A stretch of 24,000 nucleotides of DNA from an uncultured Coriobacteriaceae bacterium (GTDB lineage Bacteria; Actinomycetota; Coriobacteriia; Coriobacteriales; Atopobiaceae): NCBI GenBank assembly GCA_902801175.1, contig CADCHF010000011.1, positions 25,263-49,262 on the forward strand, read 5' to 3'. Both the position numbers and the translations under genes were made by a program. Positions 8,879 through 24,000 of this stretch are shown here, piece after piece. The notes under the pieces are model-generated. The model was not told the DNA's origin. It was given only the letters and a program-made list of their open reading frames with translations, and made no database searches. Within the stretch, counting starts at the first letter, position 1; every line of letters begins with the position of its first letter.

Positions 8879-9020
8879 CTATCAAGAGACGTTTGCGGGC
8901 TTTCCGTCATGGCGCTCGTCGCAGAACGTGCATTGTGCTTCTTCTCTTCTCGCTCGTGCGGCAACGCAGGCGCGCGGTATCATTAGTGCAACTAGTGACA
9001 CAGAGCACGCGGAGGCGCAC

Positions 9021-10535
9021 ATGAGCGAGTTCATGGACATCATCACTGCTAGCAACCTCACCTACGGCCAAAAGCTCATCCATCTGGCACAGGCCGCCGA
9101 GAACTGCGAGCACCCTATTCCCACCACGCCTGAGTTTGACTGGTTCTTTGAGCGTGACGCCATCTGCGACATGCACGAGGGCAACGCGCCCTACCGTCCG
9201 CGCTACATCTGCTGCGACATGGAGCGCTTTGCTCGCCAGGGTAGCGAGTTTTTGCGTCTTGACGCACCGGACAACCTCGATGACCTGCTCATGAACCTGC
9301 AGATCCTCTACCAAAACGTGCCATCCGTCACCGGGCGCCCGGTGTACGTGGGCCAGCTCGACCGTCTGTTTGACCCCTTCCTGGACGGTCTCTCGGACGA
9401 AGAGATCCTCCCGCGTTTCAAGCGTTTCCTCAACTACATTGACCGCACGGTGGCCAGCGGCTACTGCCATGCCAACCTTGGCCCCGAGGACACGCGCGCC
9501 GGCCGTCTGCTGCTGCAGGCAGACGCCGAGGTCCAGAACGCCGTCCCCAACTTTACGCTCAAGTACGAGGAGGGCATCACCCCCGACGACTTCGCGCGCC
9601 TTGCGCTCAAGACGTCCATGGCCTGCGCCAACCCCGCCTATGCCAACCACCGCATGCACAAGCACACCTACGCTGCCCCCGTTGACGGCCCGGCAGACGG
9701 CTACACGGTTGTCTCCTGCTACAACGTGCTGCCCATCCGCGGCGGCGCCTACTGCCTTGACCGCGTGAAGCTCTCGCAGCTGGCCGACCTTGCCACCTCG
9801 CCGGAGCACCTGCTCAACGAACTGCTCCCCAGCGCCACGGGCGCCCTGCTCGAGTACATGGACGCGCGCATCAAGTTCTTGGTCGAGGACTCCAACTTCT
9901 TCCAGACCTCGTTCCTGGCGCGCGAGGGCCTCATTGAGCGCGAGCGCTTTGTGGGCATGTTTGGCATGATCGGCATGCACGAGTGCATCGAGAAGCTGCT
10001 TGGTCCTGGGCACGTGTATGGCACCGACCCCGAGGCCAACGACCTTGCCGACCAGATCATGACCAAGATGACCGCGCAGGTGCAGGCCTGGAACGCTCCC
10101 TACTCCGAGATTGGCAACGGCCGCTACCTCATGCACGCACAGGCCGGCTTTGGCGACCAGACCTCTTCCACGCCCGGCGTGCGCATTCGCGTGGGCGACG
10201 AGCCCGAGGTCTTCTTTGACCATCTGCGCCACTGCGCTCGCATGCACCGCTTCTTTAAGGCGGGCGTGTCCGACATCTTCCCGGTGGAGCCCACGGCCGC
10301 GCAGAACGTGGACGCCCTGCTCGATGTTGTTAAGGGCGCCTTTGCCATTGACGACACCTACCTCTCGTTCTATCCCTCCGACTCCGACCTGGTTCGCATC
10401 ACGGGCTTCCTCGTGAAGCGTTCCGAAATGGAGAAGTTTGCCCGCGGCGAGGCCGTTCTTGCAGACACCAGCCACGACGGCGAGGGCAACTGGCGCGCCA
10501 ACAACCTGGCCGACCGCAAGGTCCGTCTGGGGTAA
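9021..10535 (+). CDS. yjjI: YjjI-family glycine radical enzyme (DUF3029), function unknown
   Basis: ORF 8928..10535, trimmed to ATG 9021 (GGAGG at 9011-9015). The 504-aa protein starts MSEFMDIITASNLTYGQKLIHLAQ. A C-terminal glycyl-radical fingerprint, DLVRITGFLVKR, has its Gly codon at 10404-10406 (residue 462). A dedicated activase gene follows immediately. Overall length and the N-terminal sequence match my recollection of E. coli YjjI. Confidence 0.88.
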   Translation: MSEFMDIITASNLTYGQKLIHLAQAAENCEHPIPTTPEFDWFFERDAICDMHEGNAPYRPRYICCDMERFARQGSEFLRLDAPDNLDDLLMNLQILYQNVPSVTGRPVYVGQLDRLFDPFLDGLSDEEILPRFKRFLNYIDRTVASGYCHANLGPEDTRAGRLLLQADAEVQNAVPNFTLKYEEGITPDDFARLALKTSMACANPAYANHRMHKHTYAAPVDGPADGYTVVSCYNVLPIRGGAYCLDRVKLSQLADLATSPEHLLNELLPSATGALLEYMDARIKFLVEDSNFFQTSFLAREGLIERERFVGMFGMIGMHECIEKLLGPGHVYGTDPEANDLADQIMTKMTAQVQAWNAPYSEIGNGRYLMHAQAGFGDQTSSTPGVRIRVGDEPEVFFDHLRHCARMHRFFKAGVSDIFPVEPTAAQNVDALLDVVKGAFAIDDTYLSFYPSDSDLVRITGFLVKRSEMEKFARGEAVLADTSHDGEGNWRANNLADRKVRLG

Positions 10536-10557
10536 GGCCCAACAGGTAACTTTTGCA

Positions 10558-10584
10558 GGGGACGGCCAGGGGGTGGTCGTCCCC
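10558..10584 (+). other. Stem-loop between the glycyl radical enzyme gene and the activase gene (possible partial terminator or attenuator)
   Basis: GGGGACG (10558-10564) pairs perfectly with CGTCCCC (10578-10584). TCTTCTTTAT follows. It lies 23 nt after the yjjI stop and ends 26 nt before the activase ATG. Confidence 0.3.
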
Positions 10585-10609
10585 TCTTCTTTATGGGGAG
10601 GGCATTCTC

Positions 10610-11449
10610 ATGGAGCTCTATGCACCGGTCAACAAGATGATTCCGTTTTCGCTGGTAGATGGACCGGGATCGAGGTGCTCGATCTTTCTGCAGGGCTGCA
10701 ACATTGCCTGCGCATACTGCCACAACCCCGAGACGCAAAACCTTTGTCTTGAGTGCGGCACCTGCGTTGATCAGTGCCCAGCAGGCGCCCTGTACTGGGA
10801 TGACGGGCACGTAAGGTGGAACAAGGACGCGTGCGTGCAGTGCGACACCTGCATCCACGTGTGTCCACACAAGGCCAGCCCCAAGATTGAATGGCTTACG
10901 CCTCGCGATGTGTTTGAGACCGTGCACTCGTACCAGCCCTTCATTCGCGGTATCACCGTGTCGGGCGGCGAGTGCATGCTGCGCGCCGATTGGATGCGTG
11001 AGCTGTTTGCCCTTTGTCGAGAGGCTGGCTTGGGGACGCTCATCGACAGCAACGGGTGTGTGCCCTTTGAGGGGCAAGACGAGCTGCTGAGCGTTGCGGA
11101 TGGCGTGATGCTCGACGTTAAGGCCTGGGACGAGGCGACCTTTGAGCATCTGACCAGCGGAGACGTGCGTGTGGTCAAGCGCAACCTGGCGCTACTTGCC
11201 GAGCGAGACAAAATCGAGGAGCTGCGCATAGTTGTTGTGCCCGGCTGGAACGACCCCGAGGCAACCATCGCGGGCATCGCTGAGGTGCTGGGTCAGAAGA
11301 CCGCCGCCACCAAGCTGAAGCTCATTCGCTTCCGCAGGTTTGGCGTGGTGGGAGAGCTGGCCGAAGCGGACTCCCCCACCGACGAGCGCATGGCCGAGCT
11401 CGAGAAGCTCGCGAGGAATGCCGGCTTTGAGCTGGTGGAACTCCGCTAG
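10610..11449 (+). CDS. yjjW: YjjW-family glycine radical enzyme activase (radical SAM)
   Basis: ORF 10553..11449, trimmed to ATG 10610 (GGGGAGGG RBS, 7-nt spacer). It has the N-terminal activase motif IPFSLVDGPGSRCSIFLQGCNIACAYCHNPE (CxxxCxxC). Two ferredoxin-type motifs are present: CLECGTCVDQCP and CVQCDTCIHVCP. The SAM-binding GITVSGGEC motif is also present. Confidence 0.9.
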   Translation: MELYAPVNKMIPFSLVDGPGSRCSIFLQGCNIACAYCHNPETQNLCLECGTCVDQCPAGALYWDDGHVRWNKDACVQCDTCIHVCPHKASPKIEWLTPRDVFETVHSYQPFIRGITVSGGECMLRADWMRELFALCREAGLGTLIDSNGCVPFEGQDELLSVADGVMLDVKAWDEATFEHLTSGDVRVVKRNLALLAERDKIEELRIVVVPGWNDPEATIAGIAEVLGQKTAATKLKLIRFRRFGVVGELAEADSPTDERMAELEKLARNAGFELVELR

Positions 11450-16160: not shown

Positions 16161-16410
16161 GGCTATACCTCCCGCTTGCGCGAAACATCTCTGTAATAAT
16201 CGACTTTAATGTTACTACTTTGTTTCGACGCGTCAATACAAAAGGCAGGGGATTTTTGCCTTTGACCAACTGGCCAAGAGAAGTGCATTGCGGGCAGCTT
16301 TGCAGGTATCGCCAATATCATCTCCTGGCACACGGACTGCAGACGCGGTTGGTTTTGCCTGCCACGCCCGTGCTACCATGCCAGTGTTACGACATACGAA
16401 AGGACCTGCC

Positions 16411-17619
16411 ATGCGTTTTGACTTCACCACCATCCCGGACCGCCATGGCCACGACGCCATTGCAATTGATGGCTTGGGTGACGGCACTGGCTTTGCACCA
16501 GCCGGGCCCAAGGAAGGCTTTGACTCGATCCCACTGTGGGTTGCCGACATGAGCTTTGCCACGGCACCCTCGGTCACGCGCGCCATGCACGAGCGCATCG
16601 ACCACCCCTTCTTTGGCTACTACGCCGAAACCGACACCTATTACCAGGCCATCATCGACTGGCACGCCAACCGCAAGGGCGTCACCGACATCACGCGCGA
16701 CTGCATTGGCTACGAGAACGGCGTACTCGGAGGCGTTGTGAGCGCACTCGACGTGCTCTGCTCCCGCGGCGACAACGTGCTCGTTCACTCCCCCACCTAC
16801 GTGGGATTTACCGGCTGCTGCGAGAACAACGGCTATCACCTGGTTCATAGCCCACTCGTGCTCGACGAGGCCGGCGTGTGGCGCATGGACTTTGAAGACA
16901 TGGAGCGGCGCATTGTAGACAACAAGATCCACTGCGCCATCTTCTGCTCGCCGCACAACCCCTGCGGTCGCGTGTGGGAGCGCTGGGAGCTTGAGAAGGC
17001 CATGGCGCTCTTTGAGAAGCACGACGTGTGGGTCATCTCCGACGAGATCTGGAGCGACATCCTGCTCAACGGCAACACCCACACCCCCACGCAGCAGGTG
17101 AGCGAGTGGGCACACGAGCACACCGTTGCCCTTTACGCACCGTCCAAGACCTTCAACCTGGCCGGCCTTATTGGCTCCTACCACGTTATCTACAACCCGT
17201 GGCTGCGCGACCGCGTGCGCAAGCAGAGCTCGCTTGGCCACTACAACAGCCAGAACGTCGTGAGCATGCATGCGCTGGTTGGCGCGTACAGCGAGGAGGG
17301 CGCCGCCTGGACCAACGAGCTCTGCCAGGTGCTGTCCGCAAACGTTAACTACGCGCACGAGAAGCTGGCGTCCTACGAAGGCGTGACGTGCGCCCATCCA
17401 GAGGGCACCTATGTGCTGCTTGCCGACTGTCGCGAGTGGTGTGACGCCCACGGCGTGAGCTACGCGGACTTCCCGCGCCTGGGCTGGGATGTGGGCGTGA
17501 CCTGGCACGACGGGCGCCTGTTTGAGTGCCCGGGCTTTGTGCGCATTGCCGTGAGCGTGCCGCACTCGCAGGTAGTAGAGGCCTTTGACCGGCTGGACCG
17601 CCACGTGTTTGGTGCGTAG
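16411..17619 (+). CDS. MalY/PatB-family PLP-dependent C-S lyase (cystathionine beta-lyase-type aminotransferase class I/II)
   Basis: ORF 16288..17619, trimmed to ATG 16411. The protein starts MRFDFTTIPDRHGHDAIAI. It also contains WVADMSF, FGYY, HSPTYVGF, CSPHNPCGRVW, DEIWSD and the PLP-lysine block YAPSKTFNLAGL. Confidence 0.85.
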   Translation: MRFDFTTIPDRHGHDAIAIDGLGDGTGFAPAGPKEGFDSIPLWVADMSFATAPSVTRAMHERIDHPFFGYYAETDTYYQAIIDWHANRKGVTDITRDCIGYENGVLGGVVSALDVLCSRGDNVLVHSPTYVGFTGCCENNGYHLVHSPLVLDEAGVWRMDFEDMERRIVDNKIHCAIFCSPHNPCGRVWERWELEKAMALFEKHDVWVISDEIWSDILLNGNTHTPTQQVSEWAHEHTVALYAPSKTFNLAGLIGSYHVIYNPWLRDRVRKQSSLGHYNSQNVVSMHALVGAYSEEGAAWTNELCQVLSANVNYAHEKLASYEGVTCAHPEGTYVLLADCREWCDAHGVSYADFPRLGWDVGVTWHDGRLFECPGFVRIAVSVPHSQVVEAFDRLDRHVFGA

Positions 17620-17793: not shown

Positions 17794-18852
17794 CTACTTA
17801 CGGATGTCTCCCCTGTCCACAGAGATCTCGTAACCAATGAGATTCATGCGCAGGCCCAGGCAACCCTTGCACTGCGCGGACTCCTCGCCGGTGCAAATCT
17901 TGTTGTCGTAGAGCTCGTACTGCTTGCGAACGGCAACGGGAGACAGGTTGGGCATCACCACGTTGGCACCCGCGAGCATCCCCTTCTCGCGACCGCGCGG
18001 GTCAATGGTTCCGAGGGCCGTCGTTGCCGGCAGCAGAACGTTGGGATAGATGAGCCTTATCAGACTCAGCAGGTAAAGGGTCATGTCGAGCGTGCCGGCC
18101 GGCTCATCGCGAAACGGCGTGTCGTGGTGCGGGATAAAGGGGCCAATGCCGCACATGTCGGGCTTGAAGTCCTCCACAAAGCGCAGCTCCTGCACCAGGT
18201 GCTCCATCGTTTGGAAGGGCGAGCCGACCATGAAGCCCGCGCCAACCTGAAAGCCCACCTCACGCAGGTCGCGCAGGCACTGCATGCGATGTTCCCAGCT
18301 CATGGTTGCAGGATGCAGCCGGGCGTAGTGCTCGGGATTGGCCGTCTCGTGGCGCAGCAGGTAGCGCGATGCGCCCGCGTCAAACAGGTGCTGGTAGCTC
18401 TCGCGGTTCCGCTCTCCCATCGAGAGGGTGACGGCCGTGTCGGGGCAGCTCTCACAGATGCGGCGCACCACGTCCCCTAGCACCTCGTCGGCGTAGTACG
18501 CGTCCTCGCCGCCCTGAAGCACAATGGTGCGAAATCCCAGCTCCCAGCCCTCGCGCGCACAGTCGACAATGGTGTCGGGCTCTAGGCGATAGCGCTCCAC
18601 GTTGGTGTTTGAGCGCCTAATGCCGCAGTACAGGCAATCGTTTTTGCAGATGTTGGAAATCTCGATGAGCCCACGCACAAAGACCTTCTTGCCATAGATG
18701 GGCTCTCGGGCCTCCACCGCTTTCTCTGCCAGCAGCTCCGCCAGCTCGGGCGAGCGGTTTGCAAGCAGCGCGCGGTAACCCTCGTCATCAAGGTGATGCT
18801 CACTGGCAAGCTGGTCGACCAGCGCCACCAGCTCGGCAGATGGTTGGCTCAT
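17794..18852 (-). CDS. hydE: [FeFe]-hydrogenase H-cluster radical SAM maturase HydE
   Basis: A 352-aa ORF. IEISNICKNDCLYCGIRRSN carries the CxxxCxxC motif. Other blocks are IVLQGGED, YLLRHETANP, GAGFMVG, CGIGPFIPHHDTP, LPATTALGTI, GANVVMPN and YELYDNKIC. They match block by block the Thermotoga maritima HydE sequence as I recall it, and the length is right. Confidence 0.9.
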   Translation of the reverse strand: MSQPSAELVALVDQLASEHHLDDEGYRALLANRSPELAELLAEKAVEAREPIYGKKVFVRGLIEISNICKNDCLYCGIRRSNTNVERYRLEPDTIVDCAREGWELGFRTIVLQGGEDAYYADEVLGDVVRRICESCPDTAVTLSMGERNRESYQHLFDAGASRYLLRHETANPEHYARLHPATMSWEHRMQCLRDLREVGFQVGAGFMVGSPFQTMEHLVQELRFVEDFKPDMCGIGPFIPHHDTPFRDEPAGTLDMTLYLLSLIRLIYPNVLLPATTALGTIDPRGREKGMLAGANVVMPNLSPVAVRKQYELYDNKICTGEESAQCKGCLGLRMNLIGYEISVDRGDIRK

Positions 18853-18856
18853 GGCA

Positions 18857-18896
18857 GGTTCCTCTCGGTCGGATGAGAATCCTCTCAGTCGGATGT
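18857..18896. repeat. Tandem 20-nt direct repeat covering the hydE Shine-Dalgarno region
   Basis: On the + strand, CCTCTCGGTCGGATG (18861-18875) and CCTCTCAGTCGGATG (18881-18895) are 14/15 identical with a 20-nt period. On the minus strand this reads CATCCGACTGAGAGGATTCT CATCCGACCGAGAGGAACCT GCC ATG, so the GAGAGG SD is duplicated. Confidence 0.6.
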
Positions 18897-18919
18897 TCCA
18901 TCAATATACGAAACGCTCG

Positions 18920-18940
18920 GCAAATGCAAGCCGCATTTGC
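18920..18940. promoter_or_regulatory. Perfect palindrome GCAAATGC-N5-GCATTTGC in the hydE / nifH-like divergent control region (candidate operator)
   Basis: Read directly at 18920-18927 and 18933-18940, near the centre of the 211-bp divergent intergenic region. Function is inferred from position only. Confidence 0.3.
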
Positions 18941-19063
18941 GTTGTACAGATGGCGAAGCCTTCTAGAAGAAGAGACGGCTATAGGCTTTTGCTATGATGG
19001 CCCTGTACACTCACGATCTGACCGCGAGGACCTGTCCAAGCAGGAAGACACGAGGTTTTTACC

Positions 19064-19843
19064 ATGCTCAAGATTGCTCTTTATGGCAAGGGCGGCATCG
19101 GCAAGTCCACGATGACCAGCAACCTTGCCGCCGCATTTGCCACGTTGGGTAAGCGCGTCATCCAGATTGGCTGCGACCCCAAGGCCGACTCCACCATCAA
19201 CCTGCTCGGCGGGCAGCCGCTTGAGCCCGTCATGACCTACCTGCGGCTCCATGACGACGACCCCAGCTCGATCGACGAGATTGCGCGCGAGGGCTTTGGC
19301 GGAGTCCTTTGCATTGAGACCGGTGGACCCACCCCGGGCCTTGGCTGCGCCGGCCGTGGCATCATTGCCACCTTTAACCTGCTCGAGGACCTGCGCCTCT
19401 TTGAGACCTACCAGCCCGACGTGGTCCTCTACGACGTGTTGGGCGATGTGGTGTGCGGAGGCTTTGCCGCCCCCATTCGCGAGGGCTATGCCGAAAAGGT
19501 GCTCATCGTCACCTCTGGCGAGAAGATGGCCCTCTATGCGGCAAACAACATCAGCACCGCCGTGCACAACTTTGAGGACCGCGGCTACGCCAAGGTCGCC
19601 GGCATCATCCTCAACCATCGCAACGTGCCCGACGAGACCGCCAAGGTCCAGGCCTTTGCCGACGAGCACGACCTTGCCATTGTGGCCGAGATTCCTCGCT
19701 CCGACGATATCAACCGCTGCGAGGACCAGGGCATGACGGTTGTGGAAGCCGACCCGACCCTTCCCGTGAGCCGTCGCTTTATTGAGCTGGCCGAGCAGCT
19801 GCTCGCCAATGCCGAGGCCGACCACACACCCGAGCAGGAGTAA
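19064..19843 (+). CDS. NifH/BchL-family nitrogenase-iron-protein-like ATPase ([4Fe-4S] dimer type)
   Basis: A 259-aa ORF. The Walker A is [10 protein letters not shown] and switch I is GCDPKADST. Both cluster-ligand cysteines sit in canonical context: [15 protein letters not shown] (C95) and [17 protein letters not shown] (C131). These compare with NifH ESGGPEPGVGCAGRGVI and [17 protein letters not shown]. It also has [13 protein letters not shown]. Confidence 0.9.
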
Positions 19844-19845
19844 CC

Positions 19846-22242
19846 ATGCAACAAGCCGCCCGCTTCTACACGGCGGCCGAGCTCGCACGTCGAGGGGTCG
19901 ATGACCTTCCCGACGAGCTGGTTTCGTCCCGCCACCTTATCTATAGCTCGCCCGCAACACTGGCATACAACTCACCGGGTGCCGAGGGCTTTGGCGTAAA
20001 GCGCGCAGGCCTGGCCATTCCCGGCTCGGTCATGCTCGTTGTGGCCCCTGGCTGCTGTGGGCGCAACACCTCGCTCATTAGCGAGATGCCCGCCTATCAC
20101 GACCGCTTCTTCTACCTCACGATGGACGAGACCGACATTGTGACCGGACGCCACCTGCGCAAGATTCCCCAGGCGGTCGAGGAGGTCGTGGCGCGCCTCG
20201 AGACGGCACCGAGCGTGGTGATGATCTGCATCACCTGCGTCGACGCCCTTTTGGGCACCGACATGGAGCGCGTGTGCCGCCGTGCCGAGGAGCGCGCAGG
20301 CGTGCCCGTGCGGCCCTGCTACATGTACGCCCTCACGCGCGAGGGCCGCAGGCCGCCCATGGTGCACGTGCGCCAGAGCCTCTACTCGCTGCTCAAGCCG
20401 CGTCGCAAGCGTGCGACCTCGGTGAACATCATGGGCAGCTTTGCCCCGTACGCCAGCGACTGCGAGCTTTACCGCTACCTTGCCGGCATTGGCGTGCGCA
20501 CGGTGCGCGAGGTGTCCCGCTGCGCCAGCCTCGCGGAGTTTGAGGACATGGCCGAGGCAAACTTCAACCTGGTGCTGCATCCCGAGGCGCGCTTTGCAGC
20601 GGCCGACCTGCAGGAGCGTCTGCAGATTCCCTCGATTGAGCTCACCCGTCTCTATCAGCTCGACCGGATTCGTCGCCAGTACCAGGCCCTAGGCCAGGTG
20701 CTTGGGGCAAGCTTTGACGACGAGGCGGACTATGCCGCTGCCGAGGGGGCTATCGAGGCCTTCCGCGCGGCCCAGCCAGACGCAAGCTTTGCCGTGGGCG
20801 AGTGCCTTAACGCCGACCCCTTTGAGCTTGCACTGGCCCTTGTGCGCTACGGATTTGCCGTGCGCGAGGTGTTTGGCACCATCTCGGCCGAGAACTTTGT
20901 CTTTGTGCGGCACCTGGCCGAGCTTGCGCCCGAGGTTCGCGTGTACTCCAACATGGAGCCCACGATGATTCACTATGACGCCGCCGAATGCCCGGTAAGC
21001 GTTGCCCTGGGCAAGGACGCCGGCTGGTATCACCCCGAGGCCGTGTGCCTGCCGTGGAACTCCGACGTGCAGCCCTTTGGCTATGCGGGAGTACGGGCGC
21101 TCTTTGAGTCGCTGCGCGAGGCTTGCGCCGAGGATGCTGGCAAGGGCGCGGAAAGCCCCGCGCCTGCCAGCCCAGCCGACAACCTGCGCCCGCTCGACCT
21201 CGCCAAGCCGCTCCCTCGCGGCCTGCGCACCTATCTCACGCCCTTTGCGCCAGACCAGTCGGGTGCCGTGTCGGTGCTCTACGAGCTGGGTGGACTCACC
21301 GTCATCTGCGACGCAGGCGGCTGCACCGGCAACGTCTGCGGCTTTGACGAGCCGCGCTGGCACAACGAGCGCTCGGCTGTGTTTAGCGCGGGCCTGCGTG
21401 ACATGGACGCCATCATGGGTCGCGACGACAAGCTCGTGGCCGAGCTCGCCGACGCAGCCACCAAGATTGATGCCCGTTTTGCGGCCGTAGTGGGCACGCC
21501 CGTCCCGGCTGTCATTGGCACCGACTACCGGGCACTGCGCCGAATGGCAGAGCGCGCCTGCGACCTTCCGGTGGTCACGGTAGACTCCTCGGGCACGCGC
21601 CTTTACGACGACGGCGCCCGCAAGGCCTACCTCGCCCTCTTTGAGCGCTTTGCCACCGAGGAGCTGCCAGTTGTGCCCGGCCGCGTAGGTGTGATTGGCG
21701 CCAACCCGCTCGACATCGACGCGCTCGACTCGCACGAGATCTGCGAGGCCATCCCCGGTGCCGTCTGCTATGGCATGGGCGCGGGCCTCGACGACATCGC
21801 CGCAGCCTCGAGCGCCGAGCGCAACGTGGTCGTTGCCCCCTCGGGCCTTGCCGCGGCACAGCTGCTGCAGAAGCGCTTTGGCACTCCGTACGAGGTGCTC
21901 GACCCACGCGCCACGCGCATGGCGGTCCAGATGGACGTTGCGGGCAAGCGCGTGCTCATCGTCCACCAGCAGGTCACGGCAAACTCACTGCGCGAGGAGC
22001 TCCTCGCAAAGGGCGCGCTTGAGGTCAACTGCGCCACCTGGTTCATGCAGGACCGCTCCCTTGCAAAGCCGCAGGACGTCCACCTTGCCGAGGAGGCCGA
22101 CTTTGCCCGTCTTGTGGCCGAGGGCTCCTTTGACGTGATCGTGGGCGACCCCGTCCTGTGGCGCATCATTGGCAACTGGGACGGCACCACCTATGACCTG
22201 CCACAGTTTGCGGTCTCGGGAAAGCTCGGTGGAAACTCATGA
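19846..22242 (+). CDS. Single-chain fusion of two nitrogenase component-1-type (NifD/E/BchN-like plus NifK/N/BchB-like) oxidoreductase domains
   Basis: A 798-aa ORF starting 2 nt after the nifH-like stop, with AGGAG 5 nt upstream. The N-terminal half has VVAPGCCGRN (C70/C71) and VMICITCVDALLGTD (C128/C131), the xxTCxxxxIGxD block of the family. A Pro/Ala-rich linker EDAGKGAESPAPASPADNLRPLDLAKP lies at about nt 21118-21226. The C-terminal half has VICDAGGCTGNVCG (C488/C493/C498) and AAVVGTPVPAVIGTD. Confidence 0.82.
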   Translation: MQQAARFYTAAELARRGVDDLPDELVSSRHLIYSSPATLAYNSPGAEGFGVKRAGLAIPGSVMLVVAPGCCGRNTSLISEMPAYHDRFFYLTMDETDIVTGRHLRKIPQAVEEVVARLETAPSVVMICITCVDALLGTDMERVCRRAEERAGVPVRPCYMYALTREGRRPPMVHVRQSLYSLLKPRRKRATSVNIMGSFAPYASDCELYRYLAGIGVRTVREVSRCASLAEFEDMAEANFNLVLHPEARFAAADLQERLQIPSIELTRLYQLDRIRRQYQALGQVLGASFDDEADYAAAEGAIEAFRAAQPDASFAVGECLNADPFELALALVRYGFAVREVFGTISAENFVFVRHLAELAPEVRVYSNMEPTMIHYDAAECPVSVALGKDAGWYHPEAVCLPWNSDVQPFGYAGVRALFESLREACAEDAGKGAESPAPASPADNLRPLDLAKPLPRGLRTYLTPFAPDQSGAVSVLYELGGLTVICDAGGCTGNVCGFDEPRWHNERSAVFSAGLRDMDAIMGRDDKLVAELADAATKIDARFAAVVGTPVPAVIGTDYRALRRMAERACDLPVVTVDSSGTRLYDDGARKAYLALFERFATEELPVVPGRVGVIGANPLDIDALDSHEICEAIPGAVCYGMGAGLDDIAAASSAERNVVVAPSGLAAAQLLQKRFGTPYEVLDPRATRMAVQMDVAGKRVLIVHQQVTANSLREELLAKGALEVNCATWFMQDRSLAKPQDVHLAEEADFARLVAEGSFDVIVGDPVLWRIIGNWDGTTYDLPQFAVSGKLGGNS

Positions 22243-24000
22243 GCACCGTCACCCGTCGCATCCGCATGTACGGCATTGTGCAGGGCGTGGGCTTTCGCCC
22301 AACGGTAGACCGCCACGCAACGGCGACCGGCATTGCGGGCACCGTGTGCAACAAGGGTCCCTACGTTGAGATCTTTGCCCAGGGCACGCAGGAGCAGATT
22401 GACCGCTTTGTGGAGCTCATGCACACCCGTCCGCCCAAGCGCGCGACCATCGTGCGGATGGACGTCAAGCCAGTGGACGACGCACCGCAATACGAGGGCT
22501 TTTCCATCGTGGAGAGCGAGCGCACCCGCGGCGAGATCTTCATCTCGCCCGACCTCGCCATCTGCGACGACTGCCAACGCGAGCTCTTTGACCCCACCGA
22601 CCGTCGCTACCTGCACCCCTTCATCAACTGCACCAACTGCGGGCCGCGCATGACCATCCTCAACGCGCTGCCCTACGATCGCGTGCGCACGAGCATGCGG
22701 GTCTTTCCCATGTGCCCCACCTGCGCCGAGGAGTATCACAACCCGGCGAGCCGCAGGTACGATGCCCAGCCGGTCTGTTGCAACGACTGTGGGCCCGAGG
22801 TCTACCTGCTCGACAGGCCCGAGCGTGGGCGTGCGGCCATCTCTGAGGCGCGACGCATCCTGAGCGAGGGTGGCACCGTGGCCGTAAAGGGCATTGGCGG
22901 CTTCCACCTGGCCTGCGACGCCACCAACCCTGCGGCGGTGGAGCTGCTGCGCGAGCGCAAGCGCCGCTCGGCCAAGCCCTTTGCCATCATGGCGCGCGAC
23001 CTTGCCACCGCCGAGCGCGAGTGCGAGGTCTCTCCCGCAGCGAGGGAGCTGCTCTGCGGCCACCAAAAGCCCATCCTGCTGTTGCCAAAGCGCGAAGACG
23101 GGATATGCTGCGAGGCCGTGGCCCCGCACAACCCAAAGCTGGGTGTCATGCTCCCCTACGCGCCGTTGCAGCTGTTGCTCTTTAACTATGACGACGGCAT
23201 TGACATGCCCGACTGCCTGGTGATGACCAGCGCAAACGAGAGCGGAGCCCCCATCTGTCGCGACGACGATGACGCCCGCGGCGAGCTTGGGCCTCTTTGC
23301 GACGCCATCCTCTCCCACGACCGCGTCATCCGCATGCGTGCCGACGACACCGTGCTCGACCTCTTTGAGGAGCGTCCCTACATGGTGCGCCGCTCCCGCG
23401 GATGGGCACCGCTGCCCTTTGTGATCTCGGGCGGGCTTGGTGCGCGCGTGCTGGCCGTGGGAGGCGAGCTCAAGAACAGCTTTTGCCTGGGCTCGGGCGA
23501 TCTCATCTACCCCTCGCCCTACGTGGGCGACCTCTCGGACGTGCGCACCGTGCACGCCTGCGAGGACGCCATTGGGCTCTTCTCGACCCTCTTGGAGTTT
23601 GAGCCCGAGGTCGTTGCCTGCGACCTGCACCCGCGCTACAACGCCACACTCGTGGCCGAGGAGATTGCAGAGGAAAAGGGCCTGCCCGTTGTGCGCGTGC
23701 AGCACCACTATGCCCACGTGGCCGCCTGCATGGCCGAGAACGACGTGGAAGGCCCTGTCATTGGCATCTCGTTTGACGGGACGGGCTACGGCACCGACGG
23801 CACCATCTGGGGCGGCGAGGTGCTGCTCTCAAGCTACCACGGCTTTGAGCGCGTGGGTCACATTGCCCCGTTTGCGCAGGTGGGAGGCGACCTTTCGGCT
23901 CGCGAGGGCTGGCGGTGCGCCATGGCGCTCCTGCGCGACTGCAGCGAGAGCGACGACGAGGCAGCCAGTCGCGCGGAGGCTCTGGGACTTTGCACCGCTG
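22239..24000 (+). CDS. hypF: HypF carbamoyltransferase, N-terminal ~587 aa; the gene continues past the window end
   Basis: Absent from the ORF track because it has no stop in the window. ATG 22239 overlaps the upstream TGA as ATGA. The acylphosphatase domain is RIRMYGIVQGVGFRPTV. The two zinc-finger pairs are CDDCQREL...CTNCGPR and CPTCAEEY...CNDCGPE. The YrdC-like block is VAVKGIGGFHLACDA and the Kae1-like block is VQHHYAHVAACMAEN...GISFDGTGYGTDGTIWGGE. Confidence 0.92.
   Translation, partial: MSTVTRRIRMYGIVQGVGFRPTVDRHATATGIAGTVCNKGPYVEIFAQGTQEQIDRFVELMHTRPPKRATIVRMDVKPVDDAPQYEGFSIVESERTRGEIFISPDLAICDDCQRELFDPTDRRYLHPFINCTNCGPRMTILNALPYDRVRTSMRVFPMCPTCAEEYHNPASRRYDAQPVCCNDCGPEVYLLDRPERGRAAISEARRILSEGGTVAVKGIGGFHLACDATNPAAVELLRERKRRSAKPFAIMARDLATAERECEVSPAARELLCGHQKPILLLPKREDGICCEAVAPHNPKLGVMLPYAPLQLLLFNYDDGIDMPDCLVMTSANESGAPICRDDDDARGELGPLCDAILSHDRVIRMRADDTVLDLFEERPYMVRRSRGWAPLPFVISGGLGARVLAVGGELKNSFCLGSGDLIYPSPYVGDLSDVRTVHACEDAIGLFSTLLEFEPEVVACDLHPRYNATLVAEEIAEEKGLPVVRVQHHYAHVAACMAENDVEGPVIGISFDGTGYGTDGTIWGGEVLLSSYHGFERVGHIAPFAQVGGDLSAREGWRCAMALLRDCSESDDEAASRAEALGLCTA

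Follow-up and report, generated by a model that had tools for sequence, protein, structure and literature searches.

[FeFe]-hydrogenase maturation is held, to our knowledge, to need exactly three maturases, HydE, HydF and HydG. HydG is a tyrosine lyase that makes Fe(CO)2(CN)(Cys), the substrate of HydE; HydE dimerises this unit, and HydF completes and delivers the [2Fe] unit. The only other enzymatic pathway known to us that brings cyanide to iron is that of the Hyp proteins of [NiFe]-hydrogenase maturation, in which HypF and HypE derive cyanide from carbamoyl phosphate and HypC and HypD assemble Fe(CN)2(CO), the anaerobic source of the CO being unsettled. Nitrogenase proteins reduce CO2 to CO as a side activity; in NifDK, three cysteines per subunit hold the P-cluster, and the equivalents of Cys275 and His442 are the cofactor ligands. 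Here, we describe a locus in which genes for proteins of these kinds stand together. It begins in a stretch of 24,000 nucleotides (the window, contig C11, positions 25263-49262, of genome G000) from an uncultured Coriobacteriaceae bacterium of the Atopobiaceae, whose genome is a fragmented assembly of 3.16 Mb in 96 contigs (61% GC, 98.1% complete). The window holds the first part of an eight-gene operon, nflH-nflD1K1-hypF-hypC-hypD-hypE-nflD2-nflK2, in which nfl denotes nitrogenase-like genes and nflD1K1 is a fused gene. We show that the gene content and operon structure of this cluster are conserved, that it clusters with hydE and hydF, and that its occurrence is complementary to that of hydG. 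We think it probable that the operon provides the Fe-CO/CN unit of the [FeFe]-hydrogenase H-cluster by a route that does not depend on HydG. A link between nitrogenase-like, hyp and [FeFe] maturation genes is not described in the searchable full-text literature, subscription-only papers lying outside that search.

An operon of nitrogenase-like and hyp genes beside hydE

The window ends within hypF, and the operon continues on the same contig, where the segment beyond the window carries its own numbering (L002; window coordinate = L002 + 18737). The elements of the locus are as follows.

17794-18852, minus strand: hydE, encoding the radical-SAM H-cluster maturase (TIGR03956, 552 bits against a cut-off of 254.6)
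18853-19063, no strand: divergent hydE/nflH spacer of 211 nt, presumed to be a shared regulatory region
19064-19843, plus strand: nflH, 259 aa, NifH-like P-loop ATPase and [4Fe-4S] protein (Fer4_NifH, 9e-88)
19846-22242, plus strand: nflD1K1 fusion, 798 aa, with two Oxidored_nitro stretches (7e-53)
19846-21135, plus strand: D1 half of the fusion, residues 1 to about 430, NifD/E-like, Oxidored_nitro
21136-21177, plus strand: D1-K1 linker, variable and disordered (pLDDT below 50; gapped, unconserved alignment)
21178-22242, plus strand: K1 half, residues about 445-798, NifK/N-like, second Oxidored_nitro stretch
22239-24000 and on to window-equivalent 24614 (L002:3502-5877), plus strand: hypF, 791 aa in full (TIGR00143)
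L002:5904-6116, beyond the window: hypC, 26 nt after hypF
L002:6113-7165, beyond the window: hypD, ATGA overlap with hypC
L002:7162-8169, beyond the window: hypE, ATGA overlap with hypD
L002:8209-9525, beyond the window: nflD2 (D2), 438 aa, after a gap of 39 nt from hypE
L002:9522-10640, beyond the window: nflK2 (K2), ATGA overlap with nflD2

A first-pass annotation, made from the letters of the window alone, had described the first three genes as one translational unit. Read directly, the nflH/fusion junction is GAGTAA CC ATG, a gap of 2 nt, and the fusion/hypF junction is CTCATGAGC, an ATGA overlap, exactly as it had stated. It had also anticipated further members past the end of the window, and hypC, hypD, hypE, nflD2 and nflK2 are those members. 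Directly 3' of nflK2 lies a GC-rich hairpin with TTTT, followed by a convergent channel gene. Absent from the earlier account was hydE, which lies upstream of nflH in divergent orientation and encodes the sole HydE of the genome. No Rfam family matched anywhere in the window, the hydE/nflH spacer included, and a scan for promoter and terminator patterns gave no excess over shuffled expectation.

Family calls throughout were made with Pfam domains and with curated equivalog models and their bit-score cut-offs. An inventory of hydrogenases, which the first-pass annotation had recommended, yielded four matches to PF02906 ([FeFe]-hydrogenase), at least two of them with complete H-cluster cysteine motifs, and no match to PF00374 or PF00346, the two profiles with which we searched the source genome for a [NiFe] large subunit. 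HydF is encoded on contig C31 (533 bits against a cut-off of 325.6), and directly upstream of it (C31:4444-6122, minus strand) is a TM1266-like gene (113 bits), which we take to be a "putative iron-only hydrogenase system regulator"; in relatives the TM1266-like gene sits inside the Nfl/Hyp cluster, ahead of a second nifH-like gene. HydG was not found in the source genome, the best match to its model being a cross-match on HydE of 54 bits (cut-off 312). In one of the [FeFe]-hydrogenases (C7:23975-25777) motif P1 reads TSCSP instead of the usual TSCCP, a replacement of the proton-relay cysteine by serine.

Two neighbouring features of the window were also noted. A PatB-family C-S lyase gene (16288-17619, plus strand) is convergent with hydE; it was considered as a part of the system and rejected, since it adjoins the cluster in none of 80 related loci, and it is therefore probably unrelated. 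At 8928-11449 (plus strand) a YjjI-like glycyl-radical enzyme (649 bits) is encoded together with a YjjW-family activase (365 bits), a pair for which we know of no substrate.

Conservation of the cluster and its occurrence relative to HydG

Relatives of the fusion protein number 346 in a set of 185,579 species genomes, and 4,271 protein clusters are related to it. The best 80 of the 346 relatives belong to Atopobiaceae (Olsenella included), to many Lachnospiraceae (Dorea, Faecalicatena, Mediterraneibacter, Blautia, Bilifractor, Agathobacter) and to acetogenic Clostridium (C. ljungdahlii, C. carboxidivorans, C. ragsdalei, C. drakei, C. luticellarii, C. muellerianum). In essentially every sufficiently long locus, in Actinomycetota and Bacillota, the gene order is NflH-D1K1-HypF-HypC-HypD-HypE-(TM1266-like-NflH2)-D2-K2, so that the linkage of hypF to the nitrogenase-like pair, noticed in the window by the first-pass annotation, holds in two phyla. 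In other lineages, at least 17 loci continue from D2-K2 into hydF-hydE on the same strand; in three loci (L095, L099, L102) hydF-hydE lies between K2 and hypF, and in four close relatives (L098, L100, L103, L104) hydE is upstream, as in the source genome.

A minimal variant of the cluster occurs in two Lachnospiraceae genomes (G258, L105:8239-17760; G304, L106:7096-15820), in the order FecCD permease-ABC ATPase-hydE-nflH-D2-like-K2-like-Peripla_BP_2 gene-hydF; in L106 the ABC ATPase is fused to a TM1266-like domain. Neither HypD nor D1K1 was found in these two genomes. The minimal variant ties a nitrogenase-like module directly to hydE and hydF, and it is for this reason that we regard NflH/D2/K2 as the module most tightly bound to these genes; D1K1 with HypFCDE is a second module. 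The importer genes of the minimal variant hint at an imported precursor, or at some other source of CN and CO. More distant sets of NifH-like and D/K-like proteins, at 25-39% identity, were seen in G017, G084, G196 (Eggerthellaceae-like), G255, G333 and G279 (L107:7618-11049), in genomes that have no HydE or, in a single case, have HydG; these are probably different nitrogenase-like families unrelated to hydrogenase maturation.

Fifty genomes with the cluster (carriers) were profile-scored for hydrogenases and maturases. An [FeFe]-hydrogenase is present in all 50 and HydE in 48, and HydG exceeds its cut-off in only 2. A PF00374 match was obtained in 15 carriers, namely six Clostridium (group-1-like) and nine Lachnospiraceae (Ech-like), and no [NiFe] large subunit was found in the other 35. 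That hydG had merely been missed in the source genome through incomplete assembly was rejected as an explanation, HydG being likewise not found in 48 of the 50 carriers. ThiH-like proteins, which match the HydG model at about 200 bits, were rejected as a universal substitute: they occur in about 20 of the 50 carriers, and none was found in the source genome or in C. ljungdahlii.

The same pattern was found in two control samples. Among 151 Lachnospiraceae genomes, 84 encode HydE; 14 of these have no detectable HydG, and all 14 encode a D/K protein (the two genomes with the minimal variant among them), against a single weak D/K match in the 70 genomes with both HydE and HydG (Fisher p = 5e-15, relatedness ignored). 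Among 201 Coriobacteriia genomes (G000-G200), nine encode HydE, of which seven have HydG and no cluster and two, the source genome and G156, have the cluster and no HydG. The complementarity had at first looked weak in Coriobacteriia, because most of the genomes with [FeFe]-hydrogenase have no HydG, and conditioning on HydE resolved this. Given HydE, a genome has either HydG or the nitrogenase-like proteins, in two phyla; Atopobiaceae, several lineages of Lachnospiraceae and Clostridium each show this complementarity. In one Coriobacteriia genus of 41 genomes, each of about 2.2 Mb and probably Collinsella, 32 genomes have a hydrogenase homologue and 2 have HydE and HydG.

Several of the carriers have figured in the literature on gas-fermenting acetogens. 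No hydG was detectable in C. ljungdahlii, C. carboxidivorans, C. ragsdalei, C. coskatii and Clostridium sp. AWRP (PMC9431212, 2022), and five of eight acetogens (C. autoethanogenum, C. ljungdahlii, C. coskatii, C. sp. AWRP and C. ragsdalei) have hypCDEF without hypAB (PMC9431212). The authors of that study call the missing hydG unexplained, leave hypCDEF without hypAB likewise unexplained, and suggest uptake of free CO and CN. We find that C. ljungdahlii, C. carboxidivorans and C. ragsdalei carry the Nfl/Hyp cluster and that the hypCDEF locus tags of PMC9431212 are those inside it. Beside the [NiFe]-hydrogenase of C. carboxidivorans lies a further hypCDE set (PMC9431212).

The nitrogenase-like and Hyp proteins

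The assignment of the first two gene products to the nitrogenase superfamily, for which the first-pass annotation had recommended profile searches, was borne out by Fer4_NifH (9e-88) and by Oxidored_nitro (7e-53) in two stretches of the fusion. NflH keeps GKGGIGKS (Walker A), CDPKADST (switch I), switch II, and the motifs GCAGRGI and DVVCGGF, from which it follows that both [4Fe-4S] cysteines are present, as had been reported; they are C95 and C131, invariant in 76 sequences. The closest solved relative of NflH is C. pasteurianum NifH (1cp2, 7.6e-73), with nucleotide and cluster motifs all kept. NflH scores below the cut-offs of the models for NifH (TIGR01287, 304 bits against 394), CfbC (297.6 against 402), BchL (212 against 345) and BchX (203 against 331), and because it is below both of the first two it belongs to neither the NifH nor the CfbC family. 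In the comparison with solved proteins, its score against the Mar protein 9fmg_D, 219 bits, equals its score against NifH.

The fusion is far from the cut-offs of the models for nifE (107 bits against 505), nifN (25 against 327), fused NifEN (74 against 1229), nifD (38 against 654), BchB (41 against 490), BchN (24 against 420) and BchY (15 against 425), and the CfbD model matches its K1 half only (40 against 268). The Nfl proteins thus fall below every curated cut-off, NifH, CfbC, BchL, BchX, NifE, NifD, NifK, NifN and CfbD alike. Among solved structures the D1 half is closest to the nitrogenase alpha chain (3.6e-9) and NifE (1.3e-8), and its match to Mar 9fmg_A (E = 3e-4) is weaker than that to NifE; the K1 half has only a weak closest match, to NifE (1.5e-3). 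An AF2 model of the fusion built with 55 homologues (pLDDT 90, pTM 0.89) is disordered only in linker residues 432-442, and Foldseek ranks the natural Geobacter NifE-N fusion first (9i0g, 4e-26), followed by NifDK, VnfDK, NifEN, BchNB and Mar at 13-20% identity, with Mar at ranks 39-48. On these scores the pair appears to lie outside the characterised CfbCD and Mar clades, being below the CfbC and CfbD cut-offs and no closer to Mar than to nitrogenase by pairwise scores and by Foldseek. The first-pass annotation's statement that this is not a nitrogen-fixation locus also stands: a nitrogen-fixation or NifEN locus was rejected because the curated scores are far below cut-off and because no nifB, nifDK or nifX was found in the operon or its flanks, nor any further Oxidored_nitro gene or strong NifH-like gene in the genome.

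Cysteines at cluster positions had been pointed out in both halves of the fusion, and they prove to be conserved: C70, C71, C128 and C131 in D1 and C493 in K1 are invariant in 55 homologues, and C498 is near-invariant. D1 C131 aligns with NifE Cys124 and NifD Cys154, and C70/C71 correspond to a Cys62-like position. Neither the P-cluster ligand set nor the Cys275 cofactor ligand is present, D1 having only the Cys62-like and Cys154-like residues and K1 only C493; the position of NifD Cys275 and NifE Cys250 is His or Asn in D1, where His245 aligns to Cys250. D2 gave no Pfam match and shares 27% identity with the D1 half; its invariant cysteines are C57 and C120. K2 matches Oxidored_nitro (7e-32), shares 33-38% identity with the K1 half and has invariant C65. 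Judged from the alignments, the D/K cysteine pattern is that predicted for an inter-subunit [4Fe-4S] cluster of the NifEN/DPOR type and not for a P-cluster.

The description of the partner as a single-chain NifD/K-like protein holds for the window and fails for many relatives. Separate, adjacent, in-frame genes encode D1 and K1 in Clostridium, Dorea, Faecalicatena and others, D1 ending in a stop and K1 beginning with an ATG (MKGLRKY); the comparison covered L034-L037, L043-L045, L047-L049, L051 and L101, and elsewhere the two are fused through the variable linker. We therefore regard the fusion as a read-through of a D/K pair. At six close Atopobiaceae loci (L094, L097, L098, L100, L103, L104) the D1K1 match falls in two pieces, which suggests a split or a change of frame. 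All NifH-like and Oxidored_nitro sequences of the source genome lie in the operon, with one exception on contig C6 that matches Fer4_NifH at 32.5 bits in the N-terminal P-loop region only.

The four Hyp proteins exceed their equivalog cut-offs (HypF, 604 bits against 466; HypC, 65.5 against 48; HypD, 371 against 193; HypE, 416 against 252). In HypF the canonical domains reported earlier are confirmed by TIGR00143 and by Pfam, as Acylphosphatase, two zf-HYPF with four CxxC zinc-finger motifs, Sua5/YrdC, HypF_C and HypF_C_2, with a Kae1-like domain among them. HypC begins with MCVGL, HypE ends with PRIC, and HypD keeps CGTH, GPGCPVC, GFETT and the C-terminal cysteine cluster; by their motifs all four look fully functional. 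The first-pass annotation had proposed a CN/CO-cofactor system and had named as its counter-case a hypCDE plus [NiFe]-hydrogenase operon downstream; hypCDE does follow, without a [NiFe]-hydrogenase after it, and a search of the whole genome yielded none. An ordinary hyp operon serving a [NiFe]-hydrogenase was accordingly rejected, no large subunit having been found under the two Pfam models in the source genome or in any of seven close relatives searched. Elsewhere in the genome, unlinked to the cluster, are two nickel-insertion genes, hypA (97 bits; C31:26033-29431) and a partial hypB (C46:1-432). Ahead of hypA, and cut off by the end of the contig, is a gene whose product exceeds 1011 aa and combines Fe-S, FAD and NAD oxidoreductase domains; the hypB fragment lies at another contig end. 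HypA occurs in 27 of the 50 carriers; 14 of these are among the 35 in which no [NiFe] large subunit was found, and its gene never lies inside the cluster. Nickel involvement through HypA is not supported, since hypA is unlinked and HypA was missing from the matches in the other 21 of those 35 carriers.

Proposed role, alternatives and comparison with known systems

The first-pass annotation had left two possibilities, a new assembly route for a CN/CO-bearing cofactor and a reductase acting on a carbamoylated or cyano intermediate. The former is favoured by our results and the latter is not. The clustering of hydE and hydF with the operon, together with the failure to find HydG in carriers, makes the H-cluster the most likely cofactor and narrows the assembly-route claim to it. 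On balance we lean towards a second route to the H-cluster in which cyanide comes from carbamoyl phosphate through HypFE-CD and the two Nfl modules make or reshape the synthon, possibly with CO from CO2; every chemical step given here to the nitrogenase-like proteins is one that we infer. The eight-gene operon, the divergent hydE and the unlinked TM1266-like/hydF pair would together form a maturation machinery that operates without HydG. HypF and HypE would convert carbamoyl phosphate to cyanide, and HypC-HypD would hold the receiving iron, as in [NiFe] maturation, the canonical motifs having been checked. The two D/K units, with their predicted NifEN/DPOR-type [4Fe-4S] site and driven by the NifH-like ATPase, would serve as an ATP-dependent low-potential reductase, as a NifEN-like scaffold, or as both, and would remodel the Fe-CN/CO unit bound by the Hyp proteins into the Fe(CO)2(CN)-thiolate synthon for which HydG is the normal source. 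Extra CO might be supplied by D/K reduction of CO2. From there, HydE and HydF would assemble the [2Fe] subcluster and pass it on to the hydrogenase.

Other explanations have to be weighed against this proposal. The cluster could encode a new nitrogenase-like enzyme with an organometallic cofactor of its own, in which D1K1 is the scaffold and D2K2 the end-user, HypFCDE, HydE and HydF build its CO/CN-ligated iron cluster, and the [FeFe]-hydrogenases are a side issue. The two paralogous D/K pairs, often each with a NifH-like gene, recall NifEN and NifDK, and NifEN also heads the structural matches; conservation of the D/K proteins is high and includes invariant blocks outside the cluster cysteines, and in C. 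drakei the cluster stands beside HydG. We nevertheless consider such an enzyme unlikely, since it does not account for the failure to find HydG in 48 of 50 carriers, [FeFe]-hydrogenase being present in every one, or for the lack, in both control samples, of any genome with HydE that has neither HydG nor Nfl proteins. No candidate substrate-handling genes are conserved around the cluster, and acetogens without HydG, C. ljungdahlii among them, live by their [FeFe]-hydrogenases (PMC9431212), so that something must replace HydG. A second explanation would have the cluster aid [FeFe] maturation without replacing the CO/CN chemistry of HydG, for example as ATP-driven electron donors for HydE and other steps, in iron or sulfur supply, or in processing an imported precursor, the diatomic ligands coming from elsewhere. 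It draws on the minimal variant, where NflH/D2/K2 stand without Hyp proteins and with a FecCD/ABC/periplasmic-binding-protein importer, hydE and hydF, on the simple NifEN/DPOR-like cluster site that is all each D/K pair appears to have, and on the free CO/CN uptake suggested in PMC9431212. Such an ancillary role also seems to us improbable, because it does not readily account for HypFE-CD in organisms that have no [NiFe]-hydrogenase and because the complementarity is specifically with HydG.

Mere coincidence of adjacency, with hypFCDE serving an unassembled or divergent [NiFe]-hydrogenase and the nfl genes encoding an unrelated reductase, deserves very little credence. An assembly in 96 contigs with HypA and a partial HypB elsewhere leaves some room for it, as do the Clostridium carriers, which have a group-1 [NiFe]-hydrogenase by PF00374 matches and by PMC9431212. 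Against it are the translationally coupled gene order kept across Actinomycetota and Bacillota, the position of the hyp genes with Nfl genes on both sides, the failure to find a [NiFe] large subunit in the source genome, in seven close relatives and in 35 of 50 carriers, and the presence of HypA in only 14 of those 35 and never in the cluster.

A number of observations weigh against the HydG-independent route that we prefer. The HypCD product, Fe(CN)2(CO), differs from the HydE substrate, so an extra step would have to change the ligand ratio. We know of no route by which the shared NflH/D2/K2 core would provide CO or CN, and the minimal variant, being without Hyp genes, means that Hyp cannot be the universal CN source. 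C. drakei (G220, L051) and a related Clostridiaceae genome (G217, L048) have full-length HydG (about 940 bits) together with a complete cluster, so the two are not strictly exclusive; this may reflect redundancy or a transitional state. In Coriobacteriia, 63 of the 72 genomes with strong PF02906 matches have no detectable HydE, HydG or cluster, and hydrogenase homologues without a known maturase are thus common there. The p-values overstate the case because the sampled genomes are related, the unlinked HypA and partial HypB may indicate a nickel enzyme of some kind in the source genome, and the whole case is one of comparative genomics. Transposon insertion sequencing (Tn-seq) of C. autoethanogenum, in which the cluster runs from CLAU_0351 to nifH2 (PMC9004356 supplement), gives evidence that is suggestive and inconsistent. 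On rich medium hypD was called essential, as was hypC on CO, with the [NiFe]-hydrogenase genes dispensable, and on CO insertions fell from 14 to 2 in the D2-like gene and from 9 to 1 in nifH1 (PMC9004356); most cluster genes and hydE were called non-essential on CO, where the Hyt [FeFe]-hydrogenase was essential (PMC9004356).

If the proposal is correct, the view that [FeFe]-hydrogenase maturation rests on three maturases would be overturned, and the "missing hydG" of gas-fermenting Clostridium (PMC9431212) would be explained. A large clade of nitrogenase-like proteins, with its 346 relatives and more than 4,000 protein clusters, would gain its first function, Hyp proteins would be seen at work outside [NiFe]-hydrogenases, and the Nif-like, Hyp and Hyd maturation systems for Fe-S gas-processing enzymes would be functionally linked for the first time. 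The route would operate in abundant gut bacteria and in industrial acetogens, and would offer a tyrosine-independent toolbox for heterologous hydrogenase production. It bears on H2 metabolism in the gut and rumen, through Dorea, Blautia, Olsenella and other Lachnospiraceae and Atopobiaceae.

The locus resembles several known systems and coincides with none. It shares with the HydEFG system canonical HydE and HydF, whose genes group with the operon in the source genome or in relatives, an accompanying TM1266-like gene and client [FeFe]-hydrogenases; it differs in that HydG was not found and HypFCDE and two nitrogenase-like modules stand in its place. Its HypCDEF proteins are those of the [NiFe] system by equivalog scores and functional motifs, but no large-subunit client was found in the source genome or in 35 of 50 carriers, hypA and hypB are outside the cluster and often not found, and the hyp genes sit between nitrogenase-like genes. 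DPOR, COR, CfbCD and MarBHDK also combine a NifH-like ATPase with a D/K-like part that holds a simple inter-subunit Fe-S cluster. The curated models of the first three score far below cut-off for the Nfl proteins, the solved MarBHDK structures (9fmg, 9d9u) are no closer than nitrogenase by pairwise scores and Foldseek ranks, and the tetrapyrrole or sulfur-salvage gene context of these systems is not seen around the nfl operon. NifEN is the nearest relative in structure, and nifE is the top-scoring curated model for the fusion. Like NifEN, the Nfl proteins have two or three cysteines in the D half and one in the K half, as at the NifEN [4Fe-4S] site, have a NifH-like ATPase partner, and occur both fused and split. 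They depart from NifEN in an identity of only 13-20%, in fusion halves each about 100 residues shorter, in a His or Asn at the Cys250 position, and in a gene context of hyp and hyd genes.

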